32,000 nt of DNA from Rhabdonatronobacter sediminivivens (GTDB lineage Bacteria > Pseudomonadota > Alphaproteobacteria > Rhodobacterales > Rhodobacteraceae), in the NCBI RefSeq assembly GCF_013415485.1, contig NZ_JACBXS010000036.1, positions 1 through 32,000 of the forward strand, written 5' to 3'. The notes under the pieces are model-generated. The model saw only the letters and a program-made list of their open reading frames with translations, was not told the origin of the DNA and ran no database searches. Both the position numbers and the translations under genes were made by a program. The stretch's first letter is position 1. Each line of letters begins with the position of its first letter. Below, in pieces: positions 7,391-31,707 of the stretch.

Positions 7391-7427
7391 ATCCTGCGTT
7401 CGGGGTCAGCCCCCGGGGGGTGCCCGC

Positions 7428-7785: not shown

Positions 7786-7847
7786 ACTCGAACCGTGACG
7801 ACCGTTCCGCGCAGATCGTGGGGCCCGGACGCACGGTCTGACGACAT

Positions 7848-9179
7848 ATGAAAAAACAATTCTGCCGGGGGCAACGAGTGACCAAATCCGTTTACGTGGG
7901 CATGAGCGCCGATCTGATCCATCCGGGCCATATCAACATCCTCAAGCGCGCGGCCGAACTGGGCGAGGTCACCGTGGGCCTGCTGACCGACAAGGCGATT
8001 GCCAGCTACAAGCGCGTCCCCTTCATGGCCTGGGAACAGCGCGCCGAGGTGGTGGGCAACCTCAAGGGTGTGGTCCGCGTGGTCCCGCAGCACACGCTGG
8101 ATTATGTGCCCAACCTGCGCGAATATCGCCCCGATTACGTGGTCCATGGCGATGACTGGCAGACCGGCGTGCAGGCCAAGACCCGTCAGGCGGTGATCGA
8201 TGCGCTGGCCGAATGGGGCGGCGAACTGGTCGAGGTGGCCTATACCCAGGGCGTGTCCTCGACCCAGCTGAACAAGGCGCTCAAGGAGATCGGCACCACC
8301 CCGGACATCCGCCGCGCCAGCCTGCGCCGGATGCTGCATGCCAAGCCGCTGGTGCGCTTTCTGGACCTGCACAATGCGCTCTCGGGGCTGATCATCGAAA
8401 AGGCCTTCATCGACACCCCCCAGGGGCGGCGCGAATTCGACGGGATGTGGGCCAGCTCGCTCACCGATTCCACCGCCAAGGGCAAACCGGATATCGAGGC
8501 CGTGGACACCACGGGGCGGATGAACACCCTCAACGAGGTGCTGGAAGTCACCACCAAGCCGATCATCTATGACGGCGATACCGGCGGCAAGCCCGAGCAT
8601 TTCGTCTTCACCGTGCGCACGCTGGAACGCCTGGGCGTGTCCGCCGTCATCATCGAGGACAAGACCGGGCTGAAGAAGAACTCGCTCTTCGGCACGGATG
8701 TCGCCCAGACCCAGGAAAGCATCGAGGCGTTTTCCGACAAGATCCGCATGGGCAAGCTGGCCCAGCAATCCGAGGATTTCATGATCTTCGCCCGCCTGGA
8801 AAGCCTGATCCTGGGCAAGGGCGTGGATCACGCCATGGAACGGGCCGAGGCGTTTCTGGAGGCCGGCGCCGACGGGATCATGATCCATTCGCGCCAGAAG
8901 ACCCCGGATGAGGTGTTCGAATTCTGCCGCCGCTACAACAAGCTGGAAAACCGCAAGCCGCTGGTGGCCGTGCCCTCAAGCTACAACCAGACCACCGAAC
9001 AGGAACTGGAGGATAACGGCGTCAATATCGTCATCTACGCCAACCAGCTGCTGCGTTCGGCCTATCCGGCGATGCTGGGCACGGCGGTGTCGATCCTGAA
9101 ACACGCGCGGTCTTCGGAATGCGATGAGCGGATGATGCCGATCAAGGAAATCCTGGAGCTGATCCCGGGGACGAAATGA
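7848..9179 (+). CDS. pepM: Bifunctional cytidylyltransferase-phosphoenolpyruvate mutase (Fom1-like architecture)
   Basis: The N-terminal ~130 aa, [26 protein letters not shown], is an HxGH nucleotidyltransferase. The remainder is the PEP mutase core: [45 protein letters not shown]. An alternative in-frame GTG start exists at 7878. Confidence 0.95.
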
Positions 9180-10315
9180 TGATCTCGCCCCGCGCGTTTC
9201 ATGCCGCCCTGGCGGCCGAGGGCGTCGATTTCCTGGCCGGGGTGCCCGATTCCCTGCTCAAGGAGTTCTGCGCCTATGTGGATGCCGCCCTGCCCCCCGA
9301 AGGGCATGTGATCGCCGCCAATGAAGGCACCGCCGTGGGGCTGGCGGCGGGCCATCACCTGGCCACCGGCAGCCTGCCGCTGGTCTATCTGCAGAATTCG
9401 GGGCTGGGGAACACGGTCAACCCGATCCTGTCGCTGGCCGACCCCGAGGTCTACGCCCTGCCGATGATCGTCATGGTGGGCTGGCGCGGCGCCCCCGGCG
9501 TCAAGGATGAGCCCCAGCACGTCAAGCAGGGCCGGGTCACGCCCGCGCTGCTCGATGCGATGGAACTGCCATACCGCGCCCTGGACGGCGACCCCGAGGC
9601 CGCCGCCGAGGCCGCCGCCTGGGCTTGCCGCACCGCGCGCGAGACCTCCGCGCCGGTGGTGCTGCTGGTGCACAAGGGCGCCTTTGCCAAGGCCGAGGAA
9701 AAGCGCCCCGCGCGCGACATCCCCGACACCATGCTGACGCGCGAGGCCGCGATCCGGCTGATCACCGGCACCCTGCCCGCCGGCGCCACCATCGTTGCCA
9801 CCACCGGCATGATCTCGCGCGAGCTCTACGAATCGCGCGGGGCGCTGGGGCAGGACCGGTCCGGCGATTTCCTGACCGTGGGGTCCATGGGTCATGCCTC
9901 GCAGATCGCGCTGGGGATCGCGCGGGCAAGGCCCGGCGCGCAGGTGGTCTGCCTGGATGGCGATGGCGCGGCGCTGATGCATCTGGGCGGCATGGCCACG
10001 GTGGGCACCAGCGCAACCGGCGATCTGCTGCATGTGGTGCTCAACAATGGCGCCCATGACAGCGTCGGCGGGCAGCCCACGGTGGCGCAGCAGATCGCGC
10101 TTACGGGGATCGCGCGGGCCTGCGGCTATGACGCCGTCGAAGGCCCGGTCGAGGCCGAGGCCGATATCCGCGCCCAGGTCGATCGCCTGGCGCAGGCCCC
10201 GGGCCGGCGCTTCCTGGAGGTGCGCGTCCGCCCCGGTTCGCGCGCCGATCTGGGCCGGCCAAAGGAAAGCCCCGCGGAAAACAAGGCGCAATTCATCGCC
10301 CGGCTGCGCGGCTGA
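9176..10315 (+). CDS. ppd: Phosphonopyruvate decarboxylase (ThDP-dependent)
   Basis: [58 protein letters not shown]. Its ATG overlaps the pepM stop (ATGA). Confidence 0.95.
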
Positions 10316-10360
10316 CCCCGCGCGCCGCCACAGGACATTCAGACAGAACGGGAGACGCCG

Positions 10361-11494
10361 ATGCCGTCCCAGCCGTGGAGTTTCCACAACCCCGTGAAGG
10401 TGCAGTTCGGGGCGCAATCGCGCAAGGGGCTGGCCGCCACCCTGGCCGGGCAGAAGCTGCTGGTGGTGACCACCGCCCGCGGGCGCGCGCAATTCACCGA
10501 TGACCCGCATCTGGGCACCATCCAGGCCGATCTGACCTGGGTGGACAGCGTCAGCCCCAATCCCGGGCTGACCGACACGCAAAGGGAAATCGACCGGCTG
10601 GCGGGGCAGGACTTCGATGCGGTGCTGGCCTTTGGCGGCGGCTCGGCCATGGATGCGGCCAAGGCGCTGGCGGCGGCGCTGACCCCGGGGCTGGCCTGCC
10701 GCGATCTGGCCAGGCTGATCGACGATCCGGGCGCGCATCTGGACCGACCCCTGCTGCCCATCCATGCGGTCACCACCACCTCCGGCACCGGGGCCGAGGT
10801 CACGCCCTTTGCCACCATCTGGGACCATGAAAACCGCAGGAAACTGTCGCTGGCCAGCCCGCGTCTGTTCCCGGCCACGGCGGTGGTGGATCCGGAACTG
10901 ACCCACGGGCTGCCCGCTGCGGCCACGCTGGGCACCAGCCTGGACGCCATGAACCAGGCGTTCGAATCGGTCTGGAACCGCAACCGCACGCCGATGACCA
11001 CGCTGATGGCCGCCCGCGCCATCGGCCTGGCGCTGCAGGCGATCCCGCGGCTGGTGGCCGATCTGGACGACCACCCCGCCCGCGCCCAGATCGCCGAGGC
11101 CAGCCTGCTGGCGGGGCTGTGCATCAGCCAGACCCGCACCGCGATCTGCCATTCCATGTCCTATCCGCTGACCGCGCATTTCGGCATCGCCCACGGGCTG
11201 GCCTGTGCCGCCACCATGTCGGCGGTGGCCCATGAGGTGCTGGAGCACGCCCCCGATGGCCTGGACGAGGTCGCCGCGCTGAACGGCATGGCGGGGGCCC
11301 GCGCGCTGGTGGCGCACCTGGACACGGTGCTGGCGGGGACCGATCTGCGCGCCCTTGTCGCCGCCGACCTGCCAGAGCCGGAAGCCATCCTCGCCCTGCG
11401 CGGCGAGATGTTCACGCCCGGGCGCAGTGACAATTTCATCCTGCCCGTGGATCATGACATGCTGGGCCGGGTGCTGACACGCGCCCTTGGTTGA
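10361..11494 (+). CDS. Group III iron-containing alcohol dehydrogenase, predicted phosphonoacetaldehyde reductase (PhpC/FomC-like)
   Basis: WSFHNPVKVQFG, AFGGGSAMDAAKA, and a His-rich metal site ...CHSMSYPLTAHFGIAHG. GGGAG lies 6 nt upstream of the ATG. The functional call rests on its position directly after pepM-ppd. Confidence 0.85.
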   Translation: MPSQPWSFHNPVKVQFGAQSRKGLAATLAGQKLLVVTTARGRAQFTDDPHLGTIQADLTWVDSVSPNPGLTDTQREIDRLAGQDFDAVLAFGGGSAMDAAKALAAALTPGLACRDLARLIDDPGAHLDRPLLPIHAVTTTSGTGAEVTPFATIWDHENRRKLSLASPRLFPATAVVDPELTHGLPAAATLGTSLDAMNQAFESVWNRNRTPMTTLMAARAIGLALQAIPRLVADLDDHPARAQIAEASLLAGLCISQTRTAICHSMSYPLTAHFGIAHGLACAATMSAVAHEVLEHAPDGLDEVAALNGMAGARALVAHLDTVLAGTDLRALVAADLPEPEAILALRGEMFTPGRSDNFILPVDHDMLGRVLTRALG

Positions 11495-11515
11495 AGCCTT
11501 GCCCGGGGGGACAGG

Positions 11516-14158
11516 ATGAAACTGGACGATCAACTCGAAGTCCTCAGGAAATCCCGGCAACTGCATCGCAGATGGTATGCCGAAACCTATGCCGATGCCG
11601 CTGCATCGGGGATGGATCCTGCCGAACATTACCTGCATGAGGGCGCCGCGCGCGGCTTCAACCCGGGCAAGTTCTTCGATACGGATTTCTATCTGGCAAG
11701 CTATCCCGATGTGCTGGCCAGCGGGCTCAATCCGGTGGTGCATTTCGAACTGGTCGGCAGCGCCGAGCGCCGCCTGACCCGGCCGCGCAAGGCCCCCGGC
11801 GCACCCGAGGACATGCTGGCCGAAGATGACATGGCACCGGACTGGACCGAAGGCGCGCATCCCCGGGCCTCGGTTCTGATTGTCCGCGGCGGGGCCCGCG
11901 GGGCGCTGGCCGGGACCGACCTGGGCCCGCGCAACCGGTTCCGGCTGCTGCGCGCGCTCAACAGCGCCGATCCCGCCGCCCCGCAGGACCTGTGCGACCA
12001 GGCGCGGGACCTGTGCGACATGATCGCCCGGCTGCAGATGGAATGGATGCCCGTATCGGAGATTCCGACGGGCAAGGCCACGCCCCTGCCCGCGCTGGAT
12101 GGTCCGGTGGTGGCGGTGATCGGCGATGCCGGCAACAGCCCTGCCGATATCGCCGCATTGACCGCGCTGGCCCGCGCCGAAAACCCGCAGGCCACGCTGG
12201 TGCTGTGCGGCACCGGCCCCGATCCGCAGCCTGACCCGGCCCCACAGGGCGGGCCACAGGACGGGCCACAGAACGGGCCACAGGCTGGTGGCGCGGATGA
12301 GGGTGAGACCATGGTCGCCGAGGCGCCCCCCCTGGCGGATGTCCTGCACACGCAGGCCCCGGTCGAGGCGCTGGCCCGGGCCAGCCGCGCCTATACCCAT
12401 GACGCCCCGGCGGGCATGGATGCGCTGATCCGGGGCGTGCCGCTGACCGTCACCGGTGATCCGTTCTACGCGGGCTGGGGGTTCACCGATGACCGCGCCG
12501 CGCTGCGCGGGCGGGCGCGGGCGATGGATTTCGCGCAGTTCCTGGCCCTGTTGCAGTATTTCGTGCCCGATGCGCTGGCCCGCGATGGCTGGTCCGCCAC
12601 CGCCCTTGAGGACGCGCCCCGGATCGGCGGCTGGCTGGTCGACTGGATCGTATCGGATGACTTCGCCATCCATTACACCGCAGGCGTGATGCGCGACAGT
12701 TTCAGCAAGGACGAGCATTTCAAGCTTGGTCAGCTGTTCGAGAAACGGAAGTTCTGGCGCCGGGCGCGGGCCGCCTATGTCCAGGCCGCCAGTTTCGACC
12801 CGGGCAATGCCCGAATTCATTTCCGCGCCGGCTACATGGCCGAGCGGCGCAAGGAATGGCGCGCGGCCGTCCCCCATTACCGGGTCGCCCTCCGCCTGCT
12901 GCCCGGCAACCCGACCTATCGCTTCCGCATGGGGTTCGCGCTGGAAAAGCAGCGCTTCTGGGAAGAGGCGGTCCATTGCTACGCCGGCGCCCTGTTGCTG
13001 GACAACACCAGCCAGAAGTTCCGCGAGCGGCTGCCCATGGCCCGCACGCTGATGAACTTCGTGCGCGATCACCGCGCGGTCAGCGCCGCGTATCTGTCCG
13101 AACTGCATGACGGCGCCGCCGTGACCACGGCCGACCTGTCGGTCAACGGGGTCTATACGGCGAAATGCCGGCTGCACATGCTGGAACACGAAGGCCGGAA
13201 GACGCGGATCTTCGAGAAGCTGATCATGCCGCACCGGGCGGCCTATGCCCTGCGCGAAGTGATCGCCAACGAGGAACTGGCCAGGCTGGATGTGCCGACC
13301 GATCTGCATTTCCCCGCCCTTCTGGGCGTGATCCGCGCCGAGGACGGTGTGCGCGCCATGTTCTTCGAGAATGTCGAGCTTGCCCCCGAAACCGCCACCG
13401 AAACCGCCACCGGGCGCGCCATCGGGGACCGGGATGGAAGCGGGGACGGCGATGACAGGGCGCGGGCGGTCGAGGCCACGGAGGCGATGGTCGCACCGCT
13501 GACGGCCCTGGCGCTGGCCGATTGCTCCACGATGGCCCTGGACCGGCTGGAAGGGCTCGGCAGTGTCTCGGACGCCGATGAGGAAGAGGCCGAGGACCTG
13601 TTCGGCGAGGTCTATCGCCGCAAGCTTGCCTGCCTGATGGACAGCCCCGAAACCGTGCAGGAGATGGAGCGCTTCATCATCGACAACGCCATCGCCCGCA
13701 AGCGCGACGAAACCGTGACCGATTACGCCACGGAACTGTGCAGCCTGCTGGGCCTGTTGCAGCCGCGGCTGGCGGGCACCTTTGCCGCACTGTCGGCCGT
13801 GCCGGGCCATGGCGATCTGAAGCCCGACAATGTGCTGCGCGACCGCGACGGCAGGCTGGTGCTGATCGACTGGCAGTATCTGGCGCTCATGCCCGCAGGG
13901 TTCGACCTGGCGCGCTTCGCCACCTGGTCGGATCTGGACTGGCACGGCTTCGAGGCGGCGGCGCGCCTTTATGCGCATAATCTGGAAACCCGTTTTCCGG
14001 CGGTGCAGGTGATGTGGTCAAGCTGTCTGTGCTATCTTCTGGATGCGCTGGCGTCGCGGCCGGGATGGGTGCAGGAATCGCATGAGGTTTCGGTGCGCCC
14101 GGCGCTGGCCGCCCTGCGCCGACTGTCGGGCCAGATCACCCTGGGAAGTTCAGAATGA
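11516..14158 (+). CDS. 880-aa multidomain protein: shared N-module, KpsC/KpsS-like (Capsule_synth) domain, TPR, and protein-kinase-like phosphotransferase domain
   Basis: N-terminus MKLDDQLEVLRKSRQLHRRWY...NPGKFFDTDFYLASYPDVLASGLNPVVHFELVG. The middle, THDAPAGMDALIRGVPLTVTGDPFYAGWGFTDDR, resembles the KpsC PFYAGWGLT motif. TPR-like region: FEKRKFWRRARAAYVQAASFDPGNARIHFRAGY. The C-terminus has HGDLKPDNVL...LIDWQY, a kinase catalytic loop. Confidence 0.85.
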   Translation: MKLDDQLEVLRKSRQLHRRWYAETYADAAASGMDPAEHYLHEGAARGFNPGKFFDTDFYLASYPDVLASGLNPVVHFELVGSAERRLTRPRKAPGAPEDMLAEDDMAPDWTEGAHPRASVLIVRGGARGALAGTDLGPRNRFRLLRALNSADPAAPQDLCDQARDLCDMIARLQMEWMPVSEIPTGKATPLPALDGPVVAVIGDAGNSPADIAALTALARAENPQATLVLCGTGPDPQPDPAPQGGPQDGPQNGPQAGGADEGETMVAEAPPLADVLHTQAPVEALARASRAYTHDAPAGMDALIRGVPLTVTGDPFYAGWGFTDDRAALRGRARAMDFAQFLALLQYFVPDALARDGWSATALEDAPRIGGWLVDWIVSDDFAIHYTAGVMRDSFSKDEHFKLGQLFEKRKFWRRARAAYVQAASFDPGNARIHFRAGYMAERRKEWRAAVPHYRVALRLLPGNPTYRFRMGFALEKQRFWEEAVHCYAGALLLDNTSQKFRERLPMARTLMNFVRDHRAVSAAYLSELHDGAAVTTADLSVNGVYTAKCRLHMLEHEGRKTRIFEKLIMPHRAAYALREVIANEELARLDVPTDLHFPALLGVIRAEDGVRAMFFENVELAPETATETATGRAIGDRDGSGDGDDRARAVEATEAMVAPLTALALADCSTMALDRLEGLGSVSDADEEEAEDLFGEVYRRKLACLMDSPETVQEMERFIIDNAIARKRDETVTDYATELCSLLGLLQPRLAGTFAALSAVPGHGDLKPDNVLRDRDGRLVLIDWQYLALMPAGFDLARFATWSDLDWHGFEAAARLYAHNLETRFPAVQVMWSSCLCYLLDALASRPGWVQESHEVSVRPALAALRRLSGQITLGSSE
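12242..12289 (+). repeat. Imperfect 12-bp x4 in-frame tandem repeat, encoding (PQxG)n linker
   Basis: ccacagggcggg / ccacaggacggg / ccacagaacggg / ccacaggctggt, inside the 880-aa gene. Confidence 0.8.
12367..12515 (+). repeat. 149-bp tract, identical except for one base, to 18451-18599 (copy A)
   Basis: Base-by-base comparison at offset 6084 gives a single mismatch, 12457 t versus 18541 c. The flanks diverge immediately on both sides. Confidence 0.9.
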
Positions 14159-16554
14159 AGATGCAACCGACCCCTTCCGCCGCTGCCCCGGTCCAGACGC
14201 CCGCCCTCGAGAAGCCCGCAGCCAAGAAGCCCGCAGCCAAGAAGGCCCCGGCCAGAGCCAAACCGGCAGCGGCGGCGGACAAGGCAGAGATGCTGTTCCA
14301 TGCCCGCGACTGGACAGGCGCGCTGGGGCAGTACCGGCTGGCGGCCCAGGCCCCCGCCCTGCAATCCTGGGCGTGGTTCCGGATCGCGCGCTGCCATGAA
14401 GAGCTGGGCGAAAGCCTGGCCGCGCGCGAATTTCACACGCGCGCCCTGCTGGCCGAGCCGCAGTTCTTCTCGCGGCTGCGGCATCTTGAGCGGATCCTGA
14501 ACCCGGCCGATCCCGCCGACCCCCTCTCCGCGTCGGCGCCCCCCCCGGTCGATACCGGCGGCACGGACCGTCTGGCCCGCACGGTCACCGCGGCGCTGCG
14601 GCCCATGCTGGCCCGGTATGACTGGGACGGCGCGATCGCCGCGCTCAGCCCCGGTTTCGCCGGCGAGCGGCTGTGCAATTTCGTGCGCCTTGGCGCATGC
14701 ATCGATCCGCAGACCGGGCTGGGCCATGGGGCGCAGGCGCTTGAGGCGCTGTATCTGCGCTGCCATCTGGAACGCGCGCTGGAGCGGGGCGACGGCTACC
14801 GTGTCATCCCCGATACCATCACCGAGGGCGAGGACCACAAGTTCACCCGCCAGGAAATCCTGCTGTCGGCACAGGACATGCTGGAGCGGCTTTACGGCGC
14901 GCATGCCGATGCGCTGGATTACCGGCTGGTGGCGGTGCATATCTCGGACCAGCTGCGGTTCTGGGAAACCTCCATCGCCCGCTGGGACGCCCTGTGCACG
15001 GATTATCCCCAGCGCCCGGAGTATCGGGTCAGCCTGGCCTTCGCCTGCATGAAGAACCGCGCCTTCGACCGTGCCGCCGCGCTGCTGGACCAGATCGAAC
15101 CGACCCGGCTGGATGCGGAAGAGCGCAGGAAGGTGGCCCGTATCCGGCGCGAGATCACCGAGCGGCGCAATGCCGGGGTGCTGGCCGATTTCCTGGAGAC
15201 GCTGGCCACGGGGCAGATCGCGCAGGCCAAGGAGATCTTCCTCGACCATGTCATCTTCATGGACGAGATGAACAAGGACCAGCATCTGCCGGTGCTGCAC
15301 GCCCTGATGGCGGCGGCGCAGAAGATCCACACCGGGGATGGCGATTTCTTCTTCAGCCCCGATCTGGCACATTCCGATCTGTTCTTCGGCGCCGATCTGC
15401 CGGACCCGCCGCACAAACCCCTGCCGGACTATCCCGCCGCACCGCCCTTCCGGCTGCTGTCGGTGGCGGGGTTCAATTATTCCGGGTCCGGGGCGGTGGG
15501 GGACTTCCTGTCGGATTACGAACCCGTCCAGGTGCTGGACCGGTCGCAATGCTACATCGGGGCCTGGCGGCTGCTGCAGGCGCAGGCGGGCGACCGGGCG
15601 GATTACTGCCGGCAACTGTGCCGCTTCGTGATGGATGCCTGCCTCGGGCTGGTGGATACCAGCCTGTCGGGGCCGGAAGTGGATTCGGCCAACTGGTTCA
15701 AGCGCCGCTGCCTGCTGCGCGCCTATACCACGCGCAAGCTTGCAACCGCGCCCATGATCGAGGCGCTGTGCCGGATGATCGATTTCGCCGCCGACGCCCA
15801 TCAGCCGGATGGCGGCAATGGCGATGACGGGGCAGCGCCTGAAGCGCCTGACCACCAGGCGGGCGGGCTGGAACAGCAGCTGCGCGATTTTCTGGTCTGG
15901 CATGCGATCGCCCCGCAGGTGACACCGGGCAAGACGCTGGTGGTGATCAACAATGACCTCAAGGCCTCGAAGATCGAGGCCAGCCGCCTGCTGCCCGCCT
16001 GCCCGACCATCACCGCCTTCCGCGACCCGCGCGATCAGTTCGTCGCGCAGATGCGTGAATCCACCTTCAACCGCCGCGATGCCGATGCCTTTGTCGAGAT
16101 GATCGAGGCCCATAACCGCGAATATCTGGAGGGCCGCGCGCGGGTGCAGGCCGCGGGCATCGACAGCATGGAGCTGCGTTTCGAAGCCTTTGTGACCGGT
16201 TCTGCCCTGCGCGACCGGGTGCTGGCCTTTGCCGGGCTGTCGGCGGACACGCCGCGGGTGGCGGCGCCCAGCTTCGACCCGGCCCGCAGCCGGGTGAGTA
16301 TCGGCATCCATCAGGGATATGAGGACCGCGCCGCGATCGACCGGGGGGCCGGGATGAAGATATACCTGCCCGCCCCTGAATACAGGCCGCCCCGTCCCTG
16401 CAGGTCACCCCGGCCTGCATTCAGGGGCACCCCGAGACCACCCAGATGCCAGGAGCCGCGACAAGCATGCGTTACACGAAACCGACCGATATTCCGGGCA
16501 CATCGCTGCGATATCGCGAAAAGCTGCGCCGCGATGAGAACGCCGACTACCTGA
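14155..16554 (+). CDS. 799-aa protein: Lys/Ala/Pro-rich N-terminus, TPR-like helical region, and sulfotransferase-like C-domain. The last ~65 codons look non-coding.
   Basis: Its ATG overlaps the previous stop (ATGA). N-terminus: EKPAAKKPAAKKAPARAKPAAAA. C-domain: FNYSGSGAVGDFL, AFRDPRDQFVAQ, LRFEAFVTGSALRDRVLAFAGL, SIGIH. This domain is paralogous to the C-terminus of the 1716-aa protein. The tail after ~16350 uses rare codons (ATA, AGG, AGA, CGA), spans a strong hairpin and overlaps the next gene. Confidence 0.75.
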   Translation: MKMQPTPSAAAPVQTPALEKPAAKKPAAKKAPARAKPAAAADKAEMLFHARDWTGALGQYRLAAQAPALQSWAWFRIARCHEELGESLAAREFHTRALLAEPQFFSRLRHLERILNPADPADPLSASAPPPVDTGGTDRLARTVTAALRPMLARYDWDGAIAALSPGFAGERLCNFVRLGACIDPQTGLGHGAQALEALYLRCHLERALERGDGYRVIPDTITEGEDHKFTRQEILLSAQDMLERLYGAHADALDYRLVAVHISDQLRFWETSIARWDALCTDYPQRPEYRVSLAFACMKNRAFDRAAALLDQIEPTRLDAEERRKVARIRREITERRNAGVLADFLETLATGQIAQAKEIFLDHVIFMDEMNKDQHLPVLHALMAAAQKIHTGDGDFFFSPDLAHSDLFFGADLPDPPHKPLPDYPAAPPFRLLSVAGFNYSGSGAVGDFLSDYEPVQVLDRSQCYIGAWRLLQAQAGDRADYCRQLCRFVMDACLGLVDTSLSGPEVDSANWFKRRCLLRAYTTRKLATAPMIEALCRMIDFAADAHQPDGGNGDDGAAPEAPDHQAGGLEQQLRDFLVWHAIAPQVTPGKTLVVINNDLKASKIEASRLLPACPTITAFRDPRDQFVAQMRESTFNRRDADAFVEMIEAHNREYLEGRARVQAAGIDSMELRFEAFVTGSALRDRVLAFAGLSADTPRVAAPSFDPARSRVSIGIHQGYEDRAAIDRGAGMKIYLPAPEYRPPRPCRSPRPAFRGTPRPPRCQEPRQACVTRNRPIFRAHRCDIAKSCAAMRTPTT
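16373..16427 (+). other. 17-bp stem (one A-C mismatch) with a 21-nt loop: intercistronic RNA or DNA hairpin
   Basis: cccctgaatacaggccg ... cggcctgcattcagggg. It lies 40 nt upstream of ATG 16467 and its AGGAG (16451-16455). No U-tract. Confidence 0.6.
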
Positions 16555-17300
16555 CCCGGCTGCTCTGGGGGGCGCTGGATTTCTCTGCCTATGGCTACGG
16601 GGTGCATCATGCCGCTGTCCTGGCCGCGCGGCTGGGCCTGCCGGCGATCTCGGCCATCGAATTCGGGGTTGCGGGCGGCAACGGGCTGCTGGCGCTGGAA
16701 CGCCATGCCGAACGGATCGAGGCGGACACCGGCGTGCGCATCGAGGTCTATGGCTTCGACACCGGCACCGGCATGCCTGCGCCGCAGGATTACCGCGACA
16801 TGCCCTACCGGTTCCGCGAAGGCAATTACCGGATGGATGTGGAGGCCTTGCGCGCCCGGCTGACCCGGGCCGAACTGGTGCTGGGCGATGTGGCCGAAAC
16901 CGCGGCGGGCTTCGCCGCCGCGCGCCGCCCCGCCCCCATCGGCTTCGCGGCTTTCGATCTGGATTACCATTCCTCGACCATGGCGGCCTTCAGGCTGTTC
17001 GCGGCCGATCACACCGCCTTTCTGCCGCGCTGCCAGCTGTATTTCGATGACATCATCGGCCACGAGATTTCATCCTACAACCGCTTTGTCGGCGAACTGG
17101 CCGCGATCGAGGATTTCAACGCCGCGCATGCGGAGATGAAGATCGCCCCCAGCATGGCCCTGCACCGCTTTCCCATCAACCTGATCTGGTATCACCAGAT
17201 CTATCTGCTGCACCGCTTCACCCATCCGCAATACGCAACCTATATCAGCGGCGCAGGCCCCGATTCCCTCTCCCTGCAGGGCCCCGCGGATGAGGGCTGA
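16467..17300 (+). CDS. Putative class-I SAM-dependent methyltransferase-like protein
   Basis: MRYTKPTDIPG... with AISAIEFGVAGGNGLLALE (a GxGxG-like motif I) and FAAFDLDYHSST. AGGAG lies 11 nt upstream of ATG 16467, so the track start 16446 is rejected. Confidence 0.75.
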   Translation: MRYTKPTDIPGTSLRYREKLRRDENADYLTRLLWGALDFSAYGYGVHHAAVLAARLGLPAISAIEFGVAGGNGLLALERHAERIEADTGVRIEVYGFDTGTGMPAPQDYRDMPYRFREGNYRMDVEALRARLTRAELVLGDVAETAAGFAAARRPAPIGFAAFDLDYHSSTMAAFRLFAADHTAFLPRCQLYFDDIIGHEISSYNRFVGELAAIEDFNAAHAEMKIAPSMALHRFPINLIWYHQIYLLHRFTHPQYATYISGAGPDSLSLQGPADEG

Positions 17301-17482
17301 GCGCGCGGCCAGGCTGGCGGGCGGCGCCCTGCCCGTATCCTGTCGGCATCTTGCCCGTGCCGGGGCCGCATGCCAGTCTGGCGCAGTTTTCATGCGACGT
17401 GACATGCTCTGCAAACCCGGACCCATATGCCCATGCCTGTGACGCCCTGCCCGCATATCCAGACCGGTGCCCCCCGCGCCCA

Positions 17483-17530
17483 TCTGGCATCACGCGCCCC
17501 TCTGGCATCACGCGCCCCTCTGGCATCACC
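17483..17530 (+). repeat. 18-bp direct tandem repeat x2.7 (tctggcatcacgcgcccc) in the 278-bp gap upstream of the 1716-aa gene
   Basis: 17483-17500 and 17501-17518 are identical. 17519-17530 is a partial third copy. The repeat ends 49 nt before ATG 17579. Confidence 0.9.
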
Positions 17531-17578
17531 CCCGGCCCGATACGTCCTTGTCCTTTCGCCGCTGTCCAGGAACCGCCC

Positions 17579-20500
17579 ATGACCTTCGAAGAACAGTTGA
17601 CGATCCTGCGTGCCTCGCGGCATCTGCACAGGAAGTGGTATCTTCAGACCTATCCCGAAGTGGCCGCCGAAGGGGCCGATCCGGCCGAACACTACCTGCG
17701 CGAGGGGGCGCTCAAAGGGTACAGCCCCGGCAAGTTCTTCGACACGCAGTTGTATCTTTCACTCTATCCCGATGTCGCGGAAAGCGGTCTCAATCCGCTG
17801 GTGCATTACGAACGCATCGGGGCGGGCGAAAACCGCATCGCCAACCCCACCCGGGCGGCCATGCGCGACCGGCAGGAAAAGGTGCGCGCCATCCGCCGCG
17901 CAGAGCAGCAGGGCAACGGCCAGCCCCCCGGAAACAGCGTCGGCACCCCCGCCGAACCCTCCTCCCCCCCCCGCACTGCGGCACCCGCGGCAGAGTGGCG
18001 TGCGAAGGAAGGGTTGCAGAAGGTCATCCGCGGGATCGATTTCACCAAGCGGCGGAACTTTCTGCTGTTCTCGGCCCTGCATGCGGCGACGGATGCGCAG
18101 ATTGCGAAACATGCGGACCTGACCCGCGCGCTGTGTCGGCTGATCACCGATCTTGGCCTCACCTGGCACCAGGGGGGCACCGGGCCGAAACCTGCCACCG
18201 CGGGGGCGCGCCCGGGTATCGCGGTGCTGACCACAGGCAGCTTTGATCCCGAAACCGATCGCGCCCTGCTGGATCTTGCCCGGAGCGAAAACCCGGGCGC
18301 GGATATCCTGATCTGCGCGCCCGAAGGGGTCATCGACATCCAGCCCGCCCCGGGCTGCGCCCCTGATGAGGGGGTCGCGGAAGCGCCGGAGCCTGGCCCT
18401 GCTGCGGGATCGGGCAGATCGCGGCCCGGACCATGCGCCACGCTGGCCCGGGCGCTGGCCCGGGCCAGCCGCGCCTATACCCATGACGCCCCGGCGGGCA
18501 TGGATGCGCTGATCCGGGGCGTGCCGCTGACCGTCACCGGCGATCCGTTCTACGCGGGCTGGGGGTTCACCGATGACCGCGCCGCGCTGCGCGGGCGGGA
18601 GCGCCAGCTGGATGTGACCGGGTTCCTGACGATCCTGTTCTTCCTGCTGCCGGACGACCCCTCCCCGTCCGGAGATCCCGTCGCCAGGGTACTGGACCGG
18701 ATCATCGCCACATACCGGGGGGGGACCGCGCGCAGCGCGGCGGCACTGCCCGACAGATCGGGGCTGATGTCCTATGCCGCCGCCCGCAAGGCCAGGGCCG
18801 AAACCCCCGATGCCCCCCGCTACCAGGCTCATGTCAAGGCCAGGATGGCCCTGAACAGCGCCGCCCTGGCGGCCTGCCAGGCGGGCACCTGGCCGGCCTT
18901 TCTCGAAACCCCTGTGCGCGCGCATCTGTCCCTCGGCACGCGCCGGGAAATGGTCGACCGGCTGATCGGCCAGGCGGGGCTGGCGCGGCTGCGCACGGGC
19001 GCGGCGCGGCGCCTGCTGGCCGCGATGATCTGCGGGCTGGCCCATACCGCCGATCATCTGGACCCGGTGATGCCCGAGGTGGCCCGGCTTCTGGGCCGCG
19101 GGGAATGCGCGCGGCTGATTTCGGCGCTGGCGCGCATCTCGGGGCGCCCCTCGGCGACGCTGGTGCCCGGCTGGATGAGCGATGCCGGGGCAGGCACAGG
19201 GGCAGGGACAGGAGCAGGCACGGGGAGCCCCGCAGCCGCACCCGATGACCTGATGCTGGCGGTGATGCAGGTCCTGCCGGGCCAGGGGGGGGACGGGCTG
19301 CCAACGCTGCTGGACTGGGCGCAGCAGTGCCAGGCGCGCGGGCATCGTGGAGCGGCACTGCAGTTGCTGGAATGCTGTTTCCTGACCGGGCGCTGCCCGC
19401 CCGAGGCGCTGGCCCTGGCCATCGACCTGCTTTGGCAGGGGTTCGAGGTCGCGGCCGCGACCGAGATGCTGACCCTTGCCGCGCGCTGCTGGCCCGAATG
19501 GCAGGGCGGGCATTTCCCCATCCTGCTGGCGCAATTGACGGCAGTGCGCGGCGATGCACCGGCCACGCTTGACGCCCTGATCGGCGTCGCCCATGCCGGC
19601 GCTGCCGATGCCCTGCGCAACGCCACATTTGACGCGCTGCTGGCCCGGCATTACCCCGGCCTGCCGCTGACGGCGGCGCTGGAACGCATGGCGACAGAGG
19701 GGGGTCAGCCGGATGAGGACGGGTCCGGACAGGCCCCCGATCCACTGGCCCCCGATCCACTGGCCCCCGATCCACTGGCCCGCGCGCGCTATCTGTCCGG
19801 CCAGCGCCGCCCGGCCGAGGCCCAGGCCCTGCTGGCCGCGCTTCCGGAGGCCGAAGCCGACAGCGATGCCGCGCGGATCGAGATGAGCACCGCCCTGGCG
19901 CTGCAGGGCCGTTTCAAACAGGCCGACACCCTGCTGGGCCCGAACCCCGAAGGCGCCTGCTTTGACCAGGCGGTCCGGCTGGCCGCGCTTGTCGGCGATA
20001 CCGCCCGGGCAAAGGCCCTGGCCAGCATGGCACGCCGGCGCAAGACCGCGCTGGCCCCCGCAACCCGGCGTCTGATGCACCAGACACGCGGCGATTTTGC
20101 CGGCACGATGGAGGCCTGGCGCGCCGATCCTGCCGCCGCGCTGGCCGCGCGCCATCTGGGCATCCGGCTGGCGCGCAGCCTGCAGGCCCTGACCGCCGGA
20201 ACCGGCCAGCGGCTGCTGGTGGCAATGGTCGACACGCCCGGCGGCGATGCGGCCTGGAGCGGGCTTCTGCCCCGGCTGGCCAGGGCCTGTGCCGGGCATG
20301 AGCTGCATATCGCCTGCGACCGGGGCCTGGCGCCGGTTCTGGCGCGGTCCTTCCCGCAGATCGCATTCGTGCCCTGCGCGCGCCAGCCCGGACCGATACC
20401 GGTCACCGACAGGCCCGGCCACCTGCCCGCGGCCGAGCTTCTGGCGCTGTTCGATGCCGAGGGCTGGGACGCCGCCATCGCCGCGGACCGGGTTGCGCTG

Positions 20501-22729: not shown

Positions 22730-22907
22730 GGGCCATATGCGGATCCACCCCGCCCCCCTGCGTGTGAAGCTGCCTGCAGAAGTGACCCACTCGGGTGGAT
22801 TTGCGGTTCTCGCCCCCGGCAGTTGCGGATAACCTGCAGGCCGGGCCGCCGAAACTGCCAGCGTCACGGTGGGGTGCCCGGCCACAAGGGAAGACTGGAC
22901 CCGTGCA

Positions 22908-23660
22908 ATGACCGGCTTTGCAGACAGCAGGAAAAACAGACCCGCAGACACGCGAAGCCCTTCGAAGGAGACGGATGCTTCGGCGCCATCCGCGCTCGAT
23001 GTGGCCATCGCATCCCTGGCGACCCGGGGCAAGCTGCGCTTCGTGCAGGTCGGTGCCAATGACGGCAAGCTGGAAGACCCGATACATCACCATGTTCTGG
23101 CGCATGGGGCCGAGGCCCTTCTGATCGAACCCCAGCCCTGGCTGATCGCGGCGCTGCGCGACAATTACGCCGCCTTTCGCGGCAAGCTGATGATCGAGAA
23201 CATCGCCATCGGCCCGGACCACGGCACGCTGTCCCTGCATACCCTGAAGCGCGCGTTCTGGGACGATTACACCGCCCGGGACGGCCGCAGCCCGACCATC
23301 CTGTTCTCCCCGGACCGGGATCTGCTCAGACGCCGTATTGCCAGACGCATGAAGGTGGACATCGACGAGGCCGAGCGGCGCCTGGACACCATCGATGTGC
23401 CCATGGCGCCGCTGTCGGATGTGCTGGCCCGCCACGGCATGACGGATATCGACGTGCTGCAGGTCGATTGCGAGGGCTGGGACGTCAAGGTCATCCTGTC
23501 GCTGGGAGAGGTCCGCCCCGCCGTGATCCATTTCGAATCCCTGAGCCTGAGCGACGCCGACAGGCAGGCGTTTTCGGACTGGAGCAGGCAGAACGGTTAT
23601 GGCTGCATTCAGGGCTGGAAGGACACGCTGGCGATCCGCGGCCTGTCCCATCCCGCATGA
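22908..23660 (+). CDS. FkbM-family methyltransferase
   Basis: LRFVQVGANDGKLEDPI, LLIEPQP, IDVLQVDCEGWDVKVILSL, VIHFES. The start is uncertain: ATG 22908 or GTG 22869. Confidence 0.85.
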   Translation: MTGFADSRKNRPADTRSPSKETDASAPSALDVAIASLATRGKLRFVQVGANDGKLEDPIHHHVLAHGAEALLIEPQPWLIAALRDNYAAFRGKLMIENIAIGPDHGTLSLHTLKRAFWDDYTARDGRSPTILFSPDRDLLRRRIARRMKVDIDEAERRLDTIDVPMAPLSDVLARHGMTDIDVLQVDCEGWDVKVILSLGEVRPAVIHFESLSLSDADRQAFSDWSRQNGYGCIQGWKDTLAIRGLSHPA

Positions 23661-26798: not shown

Positions 26799-27534
26799 GA
26801 TAGGGTTTCCCTTCAACTTCGATATCACAATGATGTTCGCGCGCCAGCATCAGCCCGGGCAGCAGATCCCAGGAATAGGCCCCGCGCGGGTTGGTAAAAC
26901 GGGCAAAGGCCCCGCGCACGACATTATACAGGTTATACACCGCGCAGCCCATCAGGCGGCTTTCGCGGGTCTCGGCCATGCCTTGCAGGATTTCATCACA
27001 CATGGATGACGAAAACCCGCGAATGCGCGACCGGATGGGCACCAGCGTATCGCCGGTCATCAGATGTTCGTTCAGTTCGGGCAGATACAGCAGGCTGCCC
27101 AGATGGGTTGTCCCGTGCCAGAGCGTGAAGGACACGCCCCATTCCTTCAGGCCGGAACAGAAATTCTCGGTCCCGTCGATCGGGTCCAGGATGGCGTAAT
27201 AGCCCGCACTGGTCAGGTCGGTCTCGGCGGAAAAGGTTTCTTCGCCGGCGAAGGTGACATCGGGGATGCGCGCGGCCAGATAGTCATGGATCAGGGTTTC
27301 GATCAGCACGTCCGAGGCGGTGACCGGGCTGCCATCGGGCTTGATGGTGATGTCATAGCGGCTGGCCTGGATGCGCTCCATGTTGGCGCGCACCAGATCC
27401 ATCAGCCCCGCCATCAGGGCGCGGGTCTGCGCCAGATCCGGCAGGGTGTCGGCCTGCAGGCGCGGTTCGGCGGCGGTCGATGCGGCGGCGGTCGATGCAG
27501 CAGGGGGCGGGGCGGCGGGGGGCGGAGGCGTCAT
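26710..27534 (-). CDS. Inositol monophosphatase / CysQ-family phosphatase
   Basis: ILDPIDGTENF and YSWDLLPGLMLARE motifs. Its ATG overlaps the upstream stop (ATGA). Its 3' end overlaps the next gene by 89 nt. The N-terminus is Pro/Ala-rich and contains a 15-bp x2 repeat at 27469-27498. Confidence 0.85.
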   Translation of the reverse strand: MTPPPPAAPPPAASTAAASTAAEPRLQADTLPDLAQTRALMAGLMDLVRANMERIQASRYDITIKPDGSPVTASDVLIETLIHDYLAARIPDVTFAGEETFSAETDLTSAGYYAILDPIDGTENFCSGLKEWGVSFTLWHGTTHLGSLLYLPELNEHLMTGDTLVPIRSRIRGFSSSMCDEILQGMAETRESRLMGCAVYNLYNVVRGAFARFTNPRGAYSWDLLPGLMLAREHHCDIEVEGKPYHGEFLEPGRKYRVDIRHRYDLHSGQGTVG

Positions 27535-31467: not shown

Positions 31468-31707
31468 CGCGGAACGGGCCTCTTGTGGCATCTGGGGCGC
31501 GCGGGCAGTTTCAGCACATGTTAGGGGCCATTGTGGCCGCGCGCACGCGGTTTTGCAAAGCCTGTCCTGAAATTGCAGGTCCGGTTCAAGGGGCACGCCC
31601 TCTTGCACCCCTGCCCGGCAGGGGGCAGGAAGTAGGCAGCACGGGCGACAGGCCCATGCGACAAGGGCGCAAAGCAGCAGAGGCGGGGCAGACCATGGCG
31701 GCGGCGG

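Follow-up and report, generated by a model that had tools for sequence, protein, structure and literature searches.

A Fom1-type gene cassette predicted to supply CMP-activated 2-hydroxyethylphosphonate within a glycan locus of Rhabdonatronobacter sediminivivens

In fosfomycin biosynthesis in Streptomyces, Fom1 combines an HxGH cytidylyltransferase (CyTase) and a PEP mutase (PepM) in one protein, and the route leads from PEP via phosphonopyruvate (PnPy), phosphonoacetaldehyde (PnAA) and 2-hydroxyethylphosphonate (HEP) to CMP-HEP, which is then C-methylated; HEP cytidylyltransferase activity of the Fom1 CyTase domain is documented (cited in PMC6697681). In the Pnt logic (Rice et al. 2019, PMC6697681), PntC makes CMP-AEP, and LicD-like transferases are involved in producing cell-surface phosphonates. 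The characterised PntCs are LicC-like (PF12804) and act on 2-aminoethylphosphonate (AEP), and PF01467 fusions account for 23.6% of Ppm enzymes (PMC6697681).

The HEP (PhpC) branch represents 8.5% of the inventoried ppm neighbourhoods, including those of the proteobacteria Campylobacter and Helicobacter (Li & Horsman 2022, PMC8942020). For the HEP-exopolysaccharides of Glycomyces sp. and Stackebrandtia nassauensis, a pepM-ppd-phpC core is located in a polysaccharide locus and yields glycan-bound HEP (PMC8942020). Marine surveys, which are without a CMP-HEP mechanism, describe pepM-aepY-phpC with LicD-type choline phosphotransferase, choline kinase, nucleotidyltransferase and sulfatase neighbours, and propose phosphonates as esters on surface glycans or on glycoproteins, the latter involving PglL-type oligosaccharyltransferases (Lockwood et al. 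2022, PMC9381506; Acker et al. 2022, PMC8931226).

Here we analysed a 32-kb window of Rhabdonatronobacter sediminivivens (GCF_013415485.1, contig NZ_JACBXS010000036.1, positions 1 to 32,000, forward strand), in which 20 genes (g01-g20) were called by third-position GC content and each was scanned against Pfam; all absences reported for the window refer to these 20 genes. Positions 7848/7878-11494 contain a three-gene cassette, g07-g09, on the plus strand. Profile searches for PEP_mutase, CTP_transf_like, phosphonopyruvate decarboxylase and Fe-ADH all returned matches in these genes, and their Pfam and NCBIfam E-values are far beyond chance.

The CyTase-PEP mutase fusion claimed in a preliminary description of this DNA is confirmed for g07, which encodes a Fom1-type bifunctional protein with a CTP_transf_like domain (PF01467; aa 20-140, E 4.4e-12; ~7905-8267) and a PEP_mutase domain (PF13714; aa 160-416, E 8.3e-54; ~8325-9095). 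The HPGH motif occupies aa 25-28 (nt 7920-7931) inside a 13-residue segment, the ten-residue PEP mutase motif lies at aa 270-279 (nt 8655-8684), and the NCBIfam PEP mutase model TIGR02320 scores 396 bits against a cut-off of 319.55. The 443-aa ORF described previously is present (7848..9179), but because all close homologues have 433 aa, translation probably begins at the GTG at 7878, which would yield the same length. The N-terminal domain shares 96 of 134 residues (71.6%), without gaps, with the crystallised CyTase domain of Fom1 (PDB 5x3d).

The start codon of g08 (9176..10315, plus strand) overlaps the g07 stop in ATGA, and its product was correctly recognised earlier as a phosphonopyruvate decarboxylase (Ppd/AepY/Fom2-type; TPP_enzyme_N and TPP_enzyme_C; TIGR03297, 467 bits, cut-off 312.5). 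The third gene, g09 (10361..11494, plus strand), encodes a group III Fe/Zn alcohol dehydrogenase (ADH) of the PhpC/FomC type (Fe-ADH, E 2.7e-33; ADH_Fe_C) with the previously noted GGGSAMDAAKA motif at aa 92. Its best PDB match is 6jko/6jkp, to the metal site of which D195, Q199, H264 and H278 align, and its top plasmid-borne homologues are annotated as PsrA or phosphonoacetaldehyde reductase and adjoin phnX/phnCDE. The phylogenetic placement suggested at the outset gave a favourable but qualified result: in a neighbour-joining comparison with PhpC/PsrA-type references and four generic Fe-ADHs, with Streptomyces PhpC, FomC and DhpG lying outside the comparison, a bipartition found in 200/200 bootstrap replicates separates g09 and the PhpC/PsrA-type references from all four generic enzymes, whereas the match to the top NCBIfam family, TIGR03405 (PhpC/PsrA), falls short of the 423.7-bit cut-off at 291.7 (next family, 147). 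Thus, g09 is predicted to be a phosphonoacetaldehyde reductase that makes HEP.

At the level of sequence families, the four enzyme identities (PepM, Ppd, ADH and CyTase) are established, and the predicted chemistry follows the fosfomycin route as far as CMP-HEP. The PepM domain of g07 would convert PEP to phosphonopyruvate; Ppd would decarboxylate the latter to phosphonoacetaldehyde, pulling the unfavourable equilibrium forward; the PhpC-type enzyme would convert the aldehyde to HEP; and the N-terminal CyTase domain of g07 would use HEP and CTP to form CMP-HEP, a phosphono-phosphate anhydride resembling a CDP-alcohol. A transferase would then attach the HEP-phosphonyl group to a hydroxyl group of a glycoconjugate at the cell surface, so that CMP is released and HEP is bound as a phosphonate ester. 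We infer that the cassette ends with CMP-HEP and that a glycan receives the HEP group.

The three genes differ from their fosfomycin counterparts in being contiguous and colinear, with the start/stop overlap between the first two, and the window lacks homologues of Fom3 (B12 radical-SAM methylase), Fom4 (HppE epoxidase), FomD and FomA/B. No radical-SAM, HppE, DUF402 or aminotransferase domain was found by the Pfam scan of the 20 genes, no AEP transaminase was found among them, and no gap between genes in the 32 kb could accommodate a gene of ~370 aa, so that the earlier claims of the absence of an aminotransferase and of Fom3, Fom4 and FomD equivalents hold for the called genes. Whereas in the fosfomycin pathway CMP-HEP is C-methylated, the neighbours here are glycan enzymes, and CMP-HEP is therefore presumably consumed by a transferase. 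The resemblance to the Pnt logic lies in a Ppm-fused enzyme that activates a phosphonate with a nucleotide in a cell-surface glycan neighbourhood; the differences are the PF01467 rather than PF12804 domain, HEP rather than AEP as the predicted substrate, and the lack of the LicD-like transferase. The core genes and the predicted product, HEP on a glycan, are those of the actinomycete HEP loci, but the window belongs to an alphaproteobacterial (Rhodobacteraceae-like) host and contains KpsC-like, sulfotransferase-fold, NeuB and Maf-like genes in place of the actinomycete gene set.

A comparison set of 83 related loci was used to assess the context of the cassette. At least 72 of these contain the trio in colinear order (E below 1e-20), and 81 contain Ppd. 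Eleven loci lack an ADH match, but eight of them end at a contig end and one (L080) has an ADH that Pfam recognises as a divergent member; this leaves L039 and L083 as the only loci in which the fusion gene has neither Ppd nor ADH beside it. LicD-like phosphotransferases were detected in 32 loci and TagF-like, CDP-glycerol-type transferases in 31. Either type is represented in 60/83 loci; in 42 loci the distance to the trio is at most 400 nt, and of the 53 loci that extend 4 kb or more on each side, 43 (~81%) have one. Phosphotransferases of the LicD-like and TagF-like type use CDP- or CMP-activated donors, and their usual place after the trio is what would be expected if CMP-HEP is a phosphonyl donor for glycans. 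Taken with the 5x3d and TIGR03405 matches, the comparison lends in silico support to the role proposed earlier for HEP-CMP as an activated donor for a surface glycan. We consider it probable, with some reserve, that g07-g09 make CMP-HEP as the donor for HEP on a cell-surface glycoconjugate, with the array in the window as context.

The same comparison bears on whether the cassette ends in AEP or methylphosphonate, made by a transaminase or MpnS encoded elsewhere in the genome and activated by the CyTase domain. Such genes could lie beyond the 32 kb, as could LicD, and neighbourhoods containing AEPT also hold PF01467-fused Ppm enzymes (PMC8942020). However, the ADH accompanies the fusion clade almost without exception, no AEP-type transaminase was identified beside the clade in the 83 loci, where the recurrent aminotransferases are DegT-type sugar enzymes, and the CyTase domain is closely similar to the HEP-specific domain of Fom1, all of which makes this end product highly improbable. 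At least as improbable is a diffusible phosphonate natural product or a phosphonolipid, even though several Streptomyces antibiotics are made via HEP (PMC8942020, PMC13576164) and phospholipid head groups likewise use CDP-type activation (PMC6697681): among the 20 genes, neither HEP-antibiotic tailoring enzymes such as HEPD or MpnS nor NRPS, ATP-grasp or CDP-alcohol phosphatidyltransferase were detected, and the neighbours in the window and the related loci are overwhelmingly glycan enzymes.

Among species-representative genomes, at least 589 stretches, from many phyla and including archaea, carry a fusion 67-92% identical to g07; judging from these comparisons, g07-g09 is a conserved, horizontally spread cassette acting as a unit. 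The rarity implied in the preliminary description was therefore overstated: the cassette is present in hundreds of microbial species, and because catalogues already include the nucleotidyl-activated HEP branch (PMC6697681, PMC8942020, PMC9381506), the find is solid but fairly ordinary.

The window itself is atypical: it has no LicD/TagF gene, and the operon runs on into giant TPR proteins. The cassette heads a plus-strand array of ~16 kb (g07-g14), in which g10 (11516..14158, 880 aa) starts 21 nt past the ADH gene and consists of an N-terminal module, a KpsC-like domain (Capsule_synth), TPR repeats and a weak C-terminal APH/choline-kinase-like domain, the last recalling the choline kinases of the marine loci. 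It is paralogous to the N-terminus of g13 (17351..22729), a giant protein of 1792 aa with the N-terminal module, a KpsC-like domain at aa ~290-440 (Capsule_synth), ~1000 aa without recognisable similarity, and a sulfotransferase-fold C-terminal domain at aa ~1500-1792 (weak Sulfotransfer_3). Both match PDB structures of KpsC over its conserved C-terminal motif (g10, 8fux/6mgc, E ~4e-7, aa 280-329; g13, E 1e-5, aa 294-411), but the similarity is short and weak, confined to ~50-110 residues with a predicted-structure pLDDT of 35, and the 'HP' region of KpsC is replaced. The core of g10 had no homologues in a large protein database, and homologues of the KpsC-like domains were detectable only in the window and in L006, where a g13 homologue directly follows the ADH gene. 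We infer that the KpsC-like domain of g10, the candidate CMP-HEP transferase, or that of g13 would transfer HEP in the window. The KpsC/KpsS beta-Kdo transferases and the Maf/FlmG glycosyltransferases that attach nonulosonic acid to flagellin depend on CMP-sugars, and the KpsC-like domains may simply use CMP-ulosonic acid.

Several further proteins could modify the phosphonate, so that CMP-HEP would be a transient handle and the mature decoration a derivative of HEP formed on CMP or after transfer, by O-methylation, sulfation or phosphorylation. The possible methyltransferases are g12 (16446..17300, plus strand, 284 aa, probably starting downstream of 16554), with weak matches to Methyltransf_24 and to the sugar O-methyltransferase CalS11 (E 0.034) and a 60% identical homologue in L022; g14 (22869..23660), the last gene of the plus-strand array, of the FkbM family (PF05050, E 6e-12; TIGR01444, 56.5 bits, above cut-off); and g20 (30697..31911, minus strand, 404 aa), with a C-terminal methyltransferase-like domain (PDB 3cvo, E 5e-52, aa 200-381). 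Sulfation would fall to the sulfotransferase-fold domains of g13 (AF2 model pLDDT 82; the top Foldseek matches are all PAPS sulfotransferases) and of its homologue in g11 (14155..16554, plus strand), a 799-aa protein with N-terminal TPR repeats matched in the PDB and this fold at aa ~445-760 (custom-built HMM, 311 bits); phosphorylation would fall to the kinase-like domain of g10. Sulfotransferase-fold domains occur beside the cassette in 12/83 loci, in L001 with one fused to a LicD-like domain, a phosphatase gene of the inositol-monophosphatase family (g18, 26710..27534, minus strand; PF00459, E 5.8e-18) with weak CysQ/HisN similarity (TIGR02067 and TIGR01331 far below cut-offs) is nearby, and in the fosfomycin route the next enzyme acts on CMP-HEP (PMC6697681, PMC8158854). 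Nevertheless, derivatisation appears unlikely, given the lack of a Fom3-type methylase, the weakness of all the methyltransferase, sulfotransferase-fold and kinase-like assignments, and the possibility that the sulfotransferase-fold domains act on the glycan. The usual targets of FkbM-type and CalS11-like methyltransferases are sugars, which they O-methylate. HEP was reportedly described by Yu et al. in 2014 as ester-linked to hexose and glycerol, with O-methylated sugars, which would parallel the methyltransferases of the window.

Facing the array on the minus strand is a separate operon, with opposed stop codons (23660 and 23707). It comprises two divergent CMP-ulosonic-acid synthetase-like cytidylyltransferases, g15 (23707-24426) and g16 (24511-25410) (PF02348 CTP_transf_3; best NCBIfam PseF, 45 and 64 bits, far below cut-off); a NeuB-family ulosonic-acid synthase, g17 (25257..26828; PF03102, E 3.7e-44), with its NeuB domain at aa ~245-515, an uncertain N-terminal extension or true start, and pseudaminic acid synthase 8h2c as its best PDB match (E 7.6e-22; NeuB and PseI models below cut-offs); g18; and g19 (27531..30584), a 1017-aa protein with the N-terminal module, TPR repeats and a weak MptE/Maf-like domain (PF01973, E 2.2e-5, below the gathering score), for which a PDB sequence search gave no match. 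The ulosonic-acid genes are highly divergent from characterised NeuB/PseF. The domain architecture of g19 resembles that of a Maf/FlmG-type protein glycosyltransferase (PMC7591256); Maf and FlmG act on flagellin, of which the 32 kb contain no gene, and this and the KpsC-like enzymes replace the PglL-type enzymes of the marine proposal. On the other side of the cassette, g01 (2-2422, minus strand), a GT2 glycosyltransferase with the N-terminal module (PF00535, E 1.2e-19) that runs off the window, and g02 (2498-3835, minus strand), a UDP-glucose 6-dehydrogenase (NF011631, 613 bits; TIGR03026 above cut-off), provide an upstream glycan-locus context. The glycosyl or other group transferases reported earlier as neighbours are thus found, as GT2, KpsC-like, FkbM and Maf-like proteins along with NeuB and the two CMP-synthetase-like genes.

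In the proposed scheme, the cassette array, with its TPR giants, KpsC-like, sulfotransferase-fold and weak kinase-like domains and methyltransferases, would converge on the operon for CMP-activated ulosonic acid and Maf/FlmG-like transfer, and the acceptor would be part of an ulosonic-acid glycoconjugate, a capsule-like polymer or a glycoprotein. Of the coupling to ulosonic-acid genes claimed earlier, their adjacency stands, but because they form a separate convergent operon, the suggestion of coupling comes only from proximity and recurrence (NeuB within 10 kb of the trio in 13/83 loci). That fraction, the opposed orientation and the absence of NeuB genes from the closest cassette relatives (L001, L002/L003, L004 and L008) would fit two independent surface-glycan systems lying side by side, with HEP unrelated to the NeuB product and decorating another polymer, such as a polysaccharide with glucuronic acid whose synthesis involves g01/g02 or genes elsewhere. 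We regard such independence as a possibility to be taken seriously but doubtful. The N-terminal module of ~90 aa is common to g01, g10, g13 and g19, which lie to either side of the junction, and this points to their functioning as one ensemble; the KpsC-like domains, a type that in known systems uses CMP-ulosonic acid, lie inside the HEP operon itself. In Alteromonadales and Idiomarina, moreover, HEP cassettes sit within NulO islands, and locus L011 of Idiomarina has the trio embedded among flgK, flgL, two flagellin genes and NeuB.

Raw ORF lists were crowded with shadow ORFs because of the high G+C content of the window (~68%), and genes were therefore called by third-position G+C content, which yielded 20 genes (g01-g20). 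The preliminary description had singled out three of them: a cytidylyltransferase (CyTase) with an HxGH motif fused to a PEP mutase core, a phosphonopyruvate decarboxylase (Ppd) that starts within an ATGA overlap, and a group III iron-dependent alcohol dehydrogenase (Fe-ADH). All three genes are real and their coordinates were right, as judged by the gene calls and by matches to Pfam and NCBIfam profiles. The fusion gene g07 (7848-9179, plus strand) encodes a CTP_transf_like domain (PF01467, aa 20-140, E = 4.4e-12), with HPGH at aa 25-28 and GVSST as its C-terminal motif, and a PEP_mutase domain (aa 160-416 by Pfam), with the EDKxxxxxNS signature at aa 270-279; the protein scores 396 bits against TIGR02320, for which the cut-off is 319.55. 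Because every close homolog of g07 is 433 aa long, the GTG at 7878 appears to be a more likely start than 7848. The Ppd gene g08 (9176-10315, plus strand) begins inside the ATGA shared with the end of g07, contains the TPP domains PF02776 and PF02775, and scores 467 bits against the TIGR03297 equivalog (cut-off 312.5). Directly 3' of it, after a gap of 45 nt, lies g09 (10361-11494, plus strand), the group III Fe-ADH (PF00465 and PF25137), with GGGSAMDAAKA at aa 92. At the level of sequence, the enzyme assignments of this trio are secure. The N-terminal domain of g07 is predicted to catalyze the reaction HEP + CTP -> CMP-HEP + PPi, where HEP is 2-hydroxyethylphosphonate.

The CyTase domain of g07 aligns without gaps with that of Streptomyces Fom1 in the crystal structure 5x3d, with 96 of 134 residues identical (71.6%, E = 5e-61), which is very close for a comparison of an alphaproteobacterial-type protein with a Streptomyces one. 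Among the NCBIfam models, g09 fits TIGR03405 (renamed PsrA) best, over the full length and with 291.7 bits, twice the score of any other family and below the equivalog cut-off of 423.7. PsrA is the Burkholderia homolog of the characterized PhpC-type HEP dehydrogenase, and the closest PDB relative of g09, 6jko/6jkp, served as the template for PhpC (PMC13576164). The metal site is retained, with D195, Q199, H264, and H278 of g09 aligned with the Zn ligands of 6jkp (ligands according to PMC13576164). The preliminary description had likened g09 to FomC, a phosphonoacetaldehyde (PnAA) reductase. In a small neighbor-joining sample, which comprised the window ADH, 20 cassette ADHs, three PsrA or PnAA-reductase references with a phnX/phnCDE context, and four generic Fe-ADHs but no Streptomyces PhpC, FomC, or DhpG, a bipartition separates g09 and the three references from all four generic Fe-ADHs in 200 of 200 bootstrap replicates; the tree addresses placement among the PhpC, FomC, and DhpG clades only in part. 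Synteny with pepM and ppd was the criterion of Lockwood et al. 2022 (PMC9381506), and g09 adjoins ppd, with the same order in at least 72 of the 83 related loci that we compared. A catabolic role for g09 was rejected in view of its location with pepM and ppd. The PhpC-type enzymes of degradative clusters sit with phnX, phnCDE, and LysR-type regulators, and the best plasmid-borne relatives of g09, annotated as PsrA or phosphonoacetaldehyde reductase, adjoin phnX or phnCDE.

In contrast to the 2-aminoethylphosphonate (AEP) pathway (Ppm-Ppd-AEPT), there is no Aminotran_5 AEP transaminase within the window: as previously stated, no aminotransferase is encoded here, given that none of the 20 called genes contains an aminotransferase domain by Pfam and that the gene map has no gap large enough for one. 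Likewise, no AEP-type transaminase was found among the recurrent neighbor families of the 83 related loci, where the recurrent aminotransferase family beside the cassette is of the DegT type, a sugar enzyme. Unlike the fosfomycin (fom) cluster, the window lacks Fom3 (B12 radical-SAM methylase), Fom4 (HppE), and FomD (DUF402), in agreement with the earlier reading; the radical-SAM, HppE, and DUF402 domains were detected by Pfam in none of the 20 called genes. With respect to the methylphosphonate and hydroxymethylphosphonate branch, neither MpnS nor HEPD was found at the sequence level among the unassigned proteins of the window (PDB searches with g10, g11, g12, g13, g19, and g20).

Both the conservation and the spread of the fusion protein are extraordinary. 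Exact-sequence look-ups of the fusion protein and Ppd of the window retrieved no record. Its top 120 database matches, some of them already labelled by JGI, are 79-93% identical, about 433 aa long (425-448), and contain both domains. A scan of one genome per species with the fusion detected at least 589 related stretches, the best 80 of which cover it at full length with 66-92% identity and belong to Alpha-, Gamma-, and Deltaproteobacteria, Bacteroidota, Chloroflexi, Firmicutes, Patescibacteria, and methanogenic archaea. Across 83 loci, compared with up to 10 kb on each side, Ppd is found 3' of the fusion in 81 and an ADH follows as well in at least 72; the gene order never varies. Among the 11 loci without a strong ADH match, eight stop at a contig edge and one (L080) encodes a divergent ADH recognized by Pfam; L039 and L083 are the only two of the 83 that truly lack both Ppd and ADH. 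Thus, the trio is a unit, because Ppd and ADH are nearly constant, follow the same order, and are accompanied by no identified adjoining AEP-type transaminase. Such unity is to be expected if the CyTase domain acts on the product of the ADH. The co-located ADHs are 24-79% identical to g09, whereas the fusion retains 66-92% identity across distant phyla; the cassette gives the impression of horizontal mobility, its parts evolving at very unequal rates. In L006, a gene for a phage-type integrase adjoins the cassette directly on the upstream side. A search of a plasmid collection with the DNA of the trio retrieved only distant aepX/aepY pieces (65-75% identity).

The neighboring ORFs of the related loci were clustered, and the recurrent families were annotated. 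The commonest of the neighbor families able to use an activated donor are the TagF-like CDP-glycerol:poly(glycerophosphate) glycerophosphotransferases (PF04464) and the LicD-family phosphotransferases (PF04991). HMMs built from 21 TagF-like and 14 LicD-like neighbor proteins identified TagF-like proteins in 31, LicD-like proteins in 32, and either in 60 of the 83 loci. A gene of one of these families, usually the fourth in the operon, lies at most 400 nt from the trio in 42 of the 83 loci, and one is present in 43 of the 53 loci that have at least 4 kb on both sides; in L021, L016, L058, and L047, for example, it is encoded directly 3' of the ADH. Enzymes of the LicD and TagF families move a phospho-alcohol from a CDP- or CMP-activated donor to a glycan hydroxyl, and CMP-HEP resembles such a donor. 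The earlier proposal that CMP-HEP is a glycan donor draws its strongest support, at the family level, from the 60 loci with a LicD-like or TagF-like gene, and at that level, decoration of a glycan as the fate of CMP-HEP is well supported. These neighbors agree with a marine survey in which pepM-aepY-phpC clusters are noted to have LicD-type and choline-kinase genes beside them (PMC9381506) and with the general Pnt proposal (PMC6697681).

As in a Pnt-type surface-tailoring locus, the phosphonate core genes of the window are found amid glycan-assembly genes, and the glycan neighborhood reported in the preliminary description is borne out by GT2, UDP-glucose dehydrogenase, KpsC-like, FkbM, NeuB, CMP-synthetase-like, and Maf-like genes. 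Unlike the Pnt-type locus and the usual HEP cassettes, the window contains no LicD-like or TagF-like gene, the respective HMMs having no match in its six-frame translation, and it is an atypical member of the cassette family. The idea of a divergent LicD or TagF hidden in g10-g13 was rejected, as HMMs derived from the neighbors in related loci match nothing there.

The plus-strand array runs on 3' of the ADH with short gaps or overlaps. Following a 21-nt gap comes g10 (880 aa), which combines a KpsC-like motif with TPR repeats and a weak APH/choline-kinase-like domain. TPR repeats are also present in g11 (799 aa), the C-terminal domain of which is ~320 aa long. After g12, possibly a methyltransferase, comes g13 (1792 aa); its N-terminal region is KpsC-like and paralogous to that of g10, and at its C-terminus it has the same ~320-aa domain as g11. 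The next gene, g14, encodes an FkbM methyltransferase. A promoter and terminator scan of 6700-24600 yielded nothing above shuffled expectation, which is consistent with an uninterrupted g07-g14 array without proving it.

KpsC-type enzymes use a CMP-activated donor, the fold normally taking CMP-Kdo. Because of this donor type and because g10 occupies the usual position of LicD or TagF, we infer that the KpsC-like domains of g10 and g13 are candidates for the CMP-HEP transferase; they may equally use a CMP-ulosonic acid instead. KpsC structures are matched by g10 and g13 over only 50-110 residues (E = 4e-7 and 1e-5, respectively). Homologs of the KpsC-like regions were detected only in the window itself and in L006, a Maricaulaceae locus, and for the core of the g10 region (aa 100-360) none was found in a database of 5.8 billion proteins; the AF2 model of this core, built from the two window paralogs, has a pLDDT of 35.5. 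The KpsC-like motif itself is contained in a 178-nt direct repeat (12367-12544 and 18451-18628, 93% DNA identity) that encodes an identical sequence of ~49 aa (ALARASRAYTHDAPAGMDALIRGVPLTVTGDPFYAGWGFTDDRAALRGR) in g10 and g13, the remainder of the paralogous N-terminal regions being only ~43% identical; this pattern points either to gene conversion or to a constraint of unusual strength.

The ~320-aa domain of g11 and g13 contains GWSGSG and RDPRDQ motifs. Its AF2 model has a pLDDT of 82 and a pTM of 0.83, and all Foldseek matches of this model in the PDB are PAPS-dependent sulfotransferases, with a probability of 1.0 and modest TM-scores (0.35-0.5). Of the 83 loci, 12 have the sulfotransferase-fold domain beside the cassette, and in an independent metagenomic contig, L084, a gene with this fold lies directly 3' of the ADH. 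No counterpart of the canonical PF13469-type sulfotransferases of loci L008 and L011 was found in the window or elsewhere among the loci. In L001, the protein encoded directly 3' of the trio (13615-16293, 892 aa) consists of a LicD-like motif (HGTLLGLVRNGDLIENDDDFD) fused to a sulfotransferase-fold domain of the g11/g13 type. In L084, the trio and the sulfotransferase-fold gene are flanked by several genes of the teichoic-acid type, which encode a TagD-like CTP:glycerol-3-P cytidylyltransferase, a glycerol-3-P dehydrogenase, two TagF-domain proteins, and a Stealth protein; this contig has the appearance of a mixed glycerol-phosphate/HEP polymer locus.

The minus-strand genes (g15-g20) converge on g14, with stops at 23660 and 23707. 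They comprise two divergent CMP-ulosonate-synthetase-like genes; a NeuB-family synthase, the best PDB match of which is pseudaminic acid synthase (E = 7.6e-22); a phosphatase of the IMPase family, weakly similar to CysQ (PAP phosphatase) and HisN and encoded at 26710-27534 between the NeuB and Maf-like genes; g19, a 1017-aa TPR protein with a weak Maf/MptE-like domain; and g20 (30697-31911), which has no Pfam or NCBIfam match and the C-terminal half of which aligns with PDB 3cvo, annotated as a 'methyltransferase-like protein of unknown function' (E = 5e-52). All genes on the ulosonic-acid side score far below the equivalog level, and neither PseB/PseC-type genes nor a flagellin gene were found in the window. 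If the phosphatase acted like CysQ, this would agree with a truly PAPS-dependent activity of the sulfotransferase-fold domains.

A link between the HEP operon and the ulosonic-acid genes is suggested by their adjacency, by a shared module of ~90 aa, and by recurrence in other loci. This N-terminal module (consensus DPAEHYLxEGAxxGxxPGKFFDTxxYLxxYPDVxxSGLNPxxHY) is common to g01 (aa 65-150), g10 (aa 1-94), g13 (aa 77-180), and g19 (aa 1-107), four large proteins of transferase-like type encoded on both strands. Family by family, NeuB, CMP-nonulosonic acid (NulO) synthetase, PseG-like, GNAT, and DegT genes are present beside the cassette in 10-17 of the 83 loci. The ~90-aa module is also found at 2694-3428 of L025, with about four copies in a giant TagF-like protein from Lysobacter sp. 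A03.

In L011, from an Idiomarina sp. MAG, the HEP trio is embedded in a flagellar glycosylation island (193-21023) with the gene order flgK, flgL, two flagellins, NeuB, GNAT, SDR, AMP-ligase, trio, GT2, GT1-like, two DegT, and sulfotransferase. This arrangement suggests phosphonate-modified flagellin glycans in some gammaproteobacteria; in the open-access literature, we found no paper tying PEP mutase or Ppd to glycosylation of flagellin or with nonulosonic acids.

Fom1-type fusions are not rare; fusions of PF01467 with Ppm account for 23.6% of Ppm enzymes (PMC6697681). The HEP branch represents 8.5% of the inventoried ppm neighborhoods, including those of Campylobacter and Helicobacter, with a known product for only two of the 10 HEP-branch gene-cluster families (PMC8942020), and phosphonoglycoproteins have already been proposed (PMC8931226). 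In the literature searched, CMP-HEP figures only as an intermediate of fosfomycin biosynthesis. Among the major components of marine dissolved organic phosphorus are HEP and methylphosphonate esters of polysaccharides; no characterized enzyme is known to us that links a CMP-activated phosphonate to a glycan. The near-invariant cross-phylum cassette together with its usual LicD-like or TagF-like gene provides a concrete, testable four-gene module for phosphonoglycan synthesis, for which Paraglaciecola hydrolytica, Alteromonas lipotrueae, Nitrincola alkalilacustris, and Ectothiorhodospira shaposhnikovii can be nominated as cultured hosts. What the window contributes is a variant that lacks the usual transferase and another case of a cassette adjoining ulosonic-acid genes, which is useful but incremental.

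A bolder reading is that, with LicD and TagF absent, the KpsC-like domains of g10 and g13 may constitute a new class of CMP-HEP:glycan phosphonyltransferases, a route foreign to the usual HEP cassettes, and that the fused sulfotransferase-fold domains may add sulfate to the free hydroxyl of the esterified HEP or to the glycan. The product would then be an ulosonic-acid polymer or a glycoprotein that bears both phosphonate and sulfate, and the HEP cassettes in flagellin or NulO islands of Idiomarina and Alteromonadales would yield phosphonylated flagellin glycans, of which we found no description in the literature. That the new transferase class, the sulfate-bearing decoration, and the phosphonylated flagellin glycans of relatives all hold together strikes us as improbable.

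Immediately upstream of the phosphonate operon, three genes are found with no evident relation to the locus: a 561-aa coiled-coil protein with a weak crescentin-rod match (3726-5411, minus strand), a DUF2793 protein (5495-6715, plus strand), and a small ORF of 113 aa (6729-7070, plus strand). An Rfam scan of the window detected no RNA family at the gathering score and, therefore, no known riboswitch upstream of the trio. An AT-rich stretch (~7750-7790) precedes the operon, and a weakly coding ORF 5' of g07 (7300-7689, plus strand) shares 49% identity over 71 aa with positions 1480-1680 of L005, located just 5' of pepM in a Rubritepida MAG; this similarity could reflect a conserved small gene or a regulatory region.
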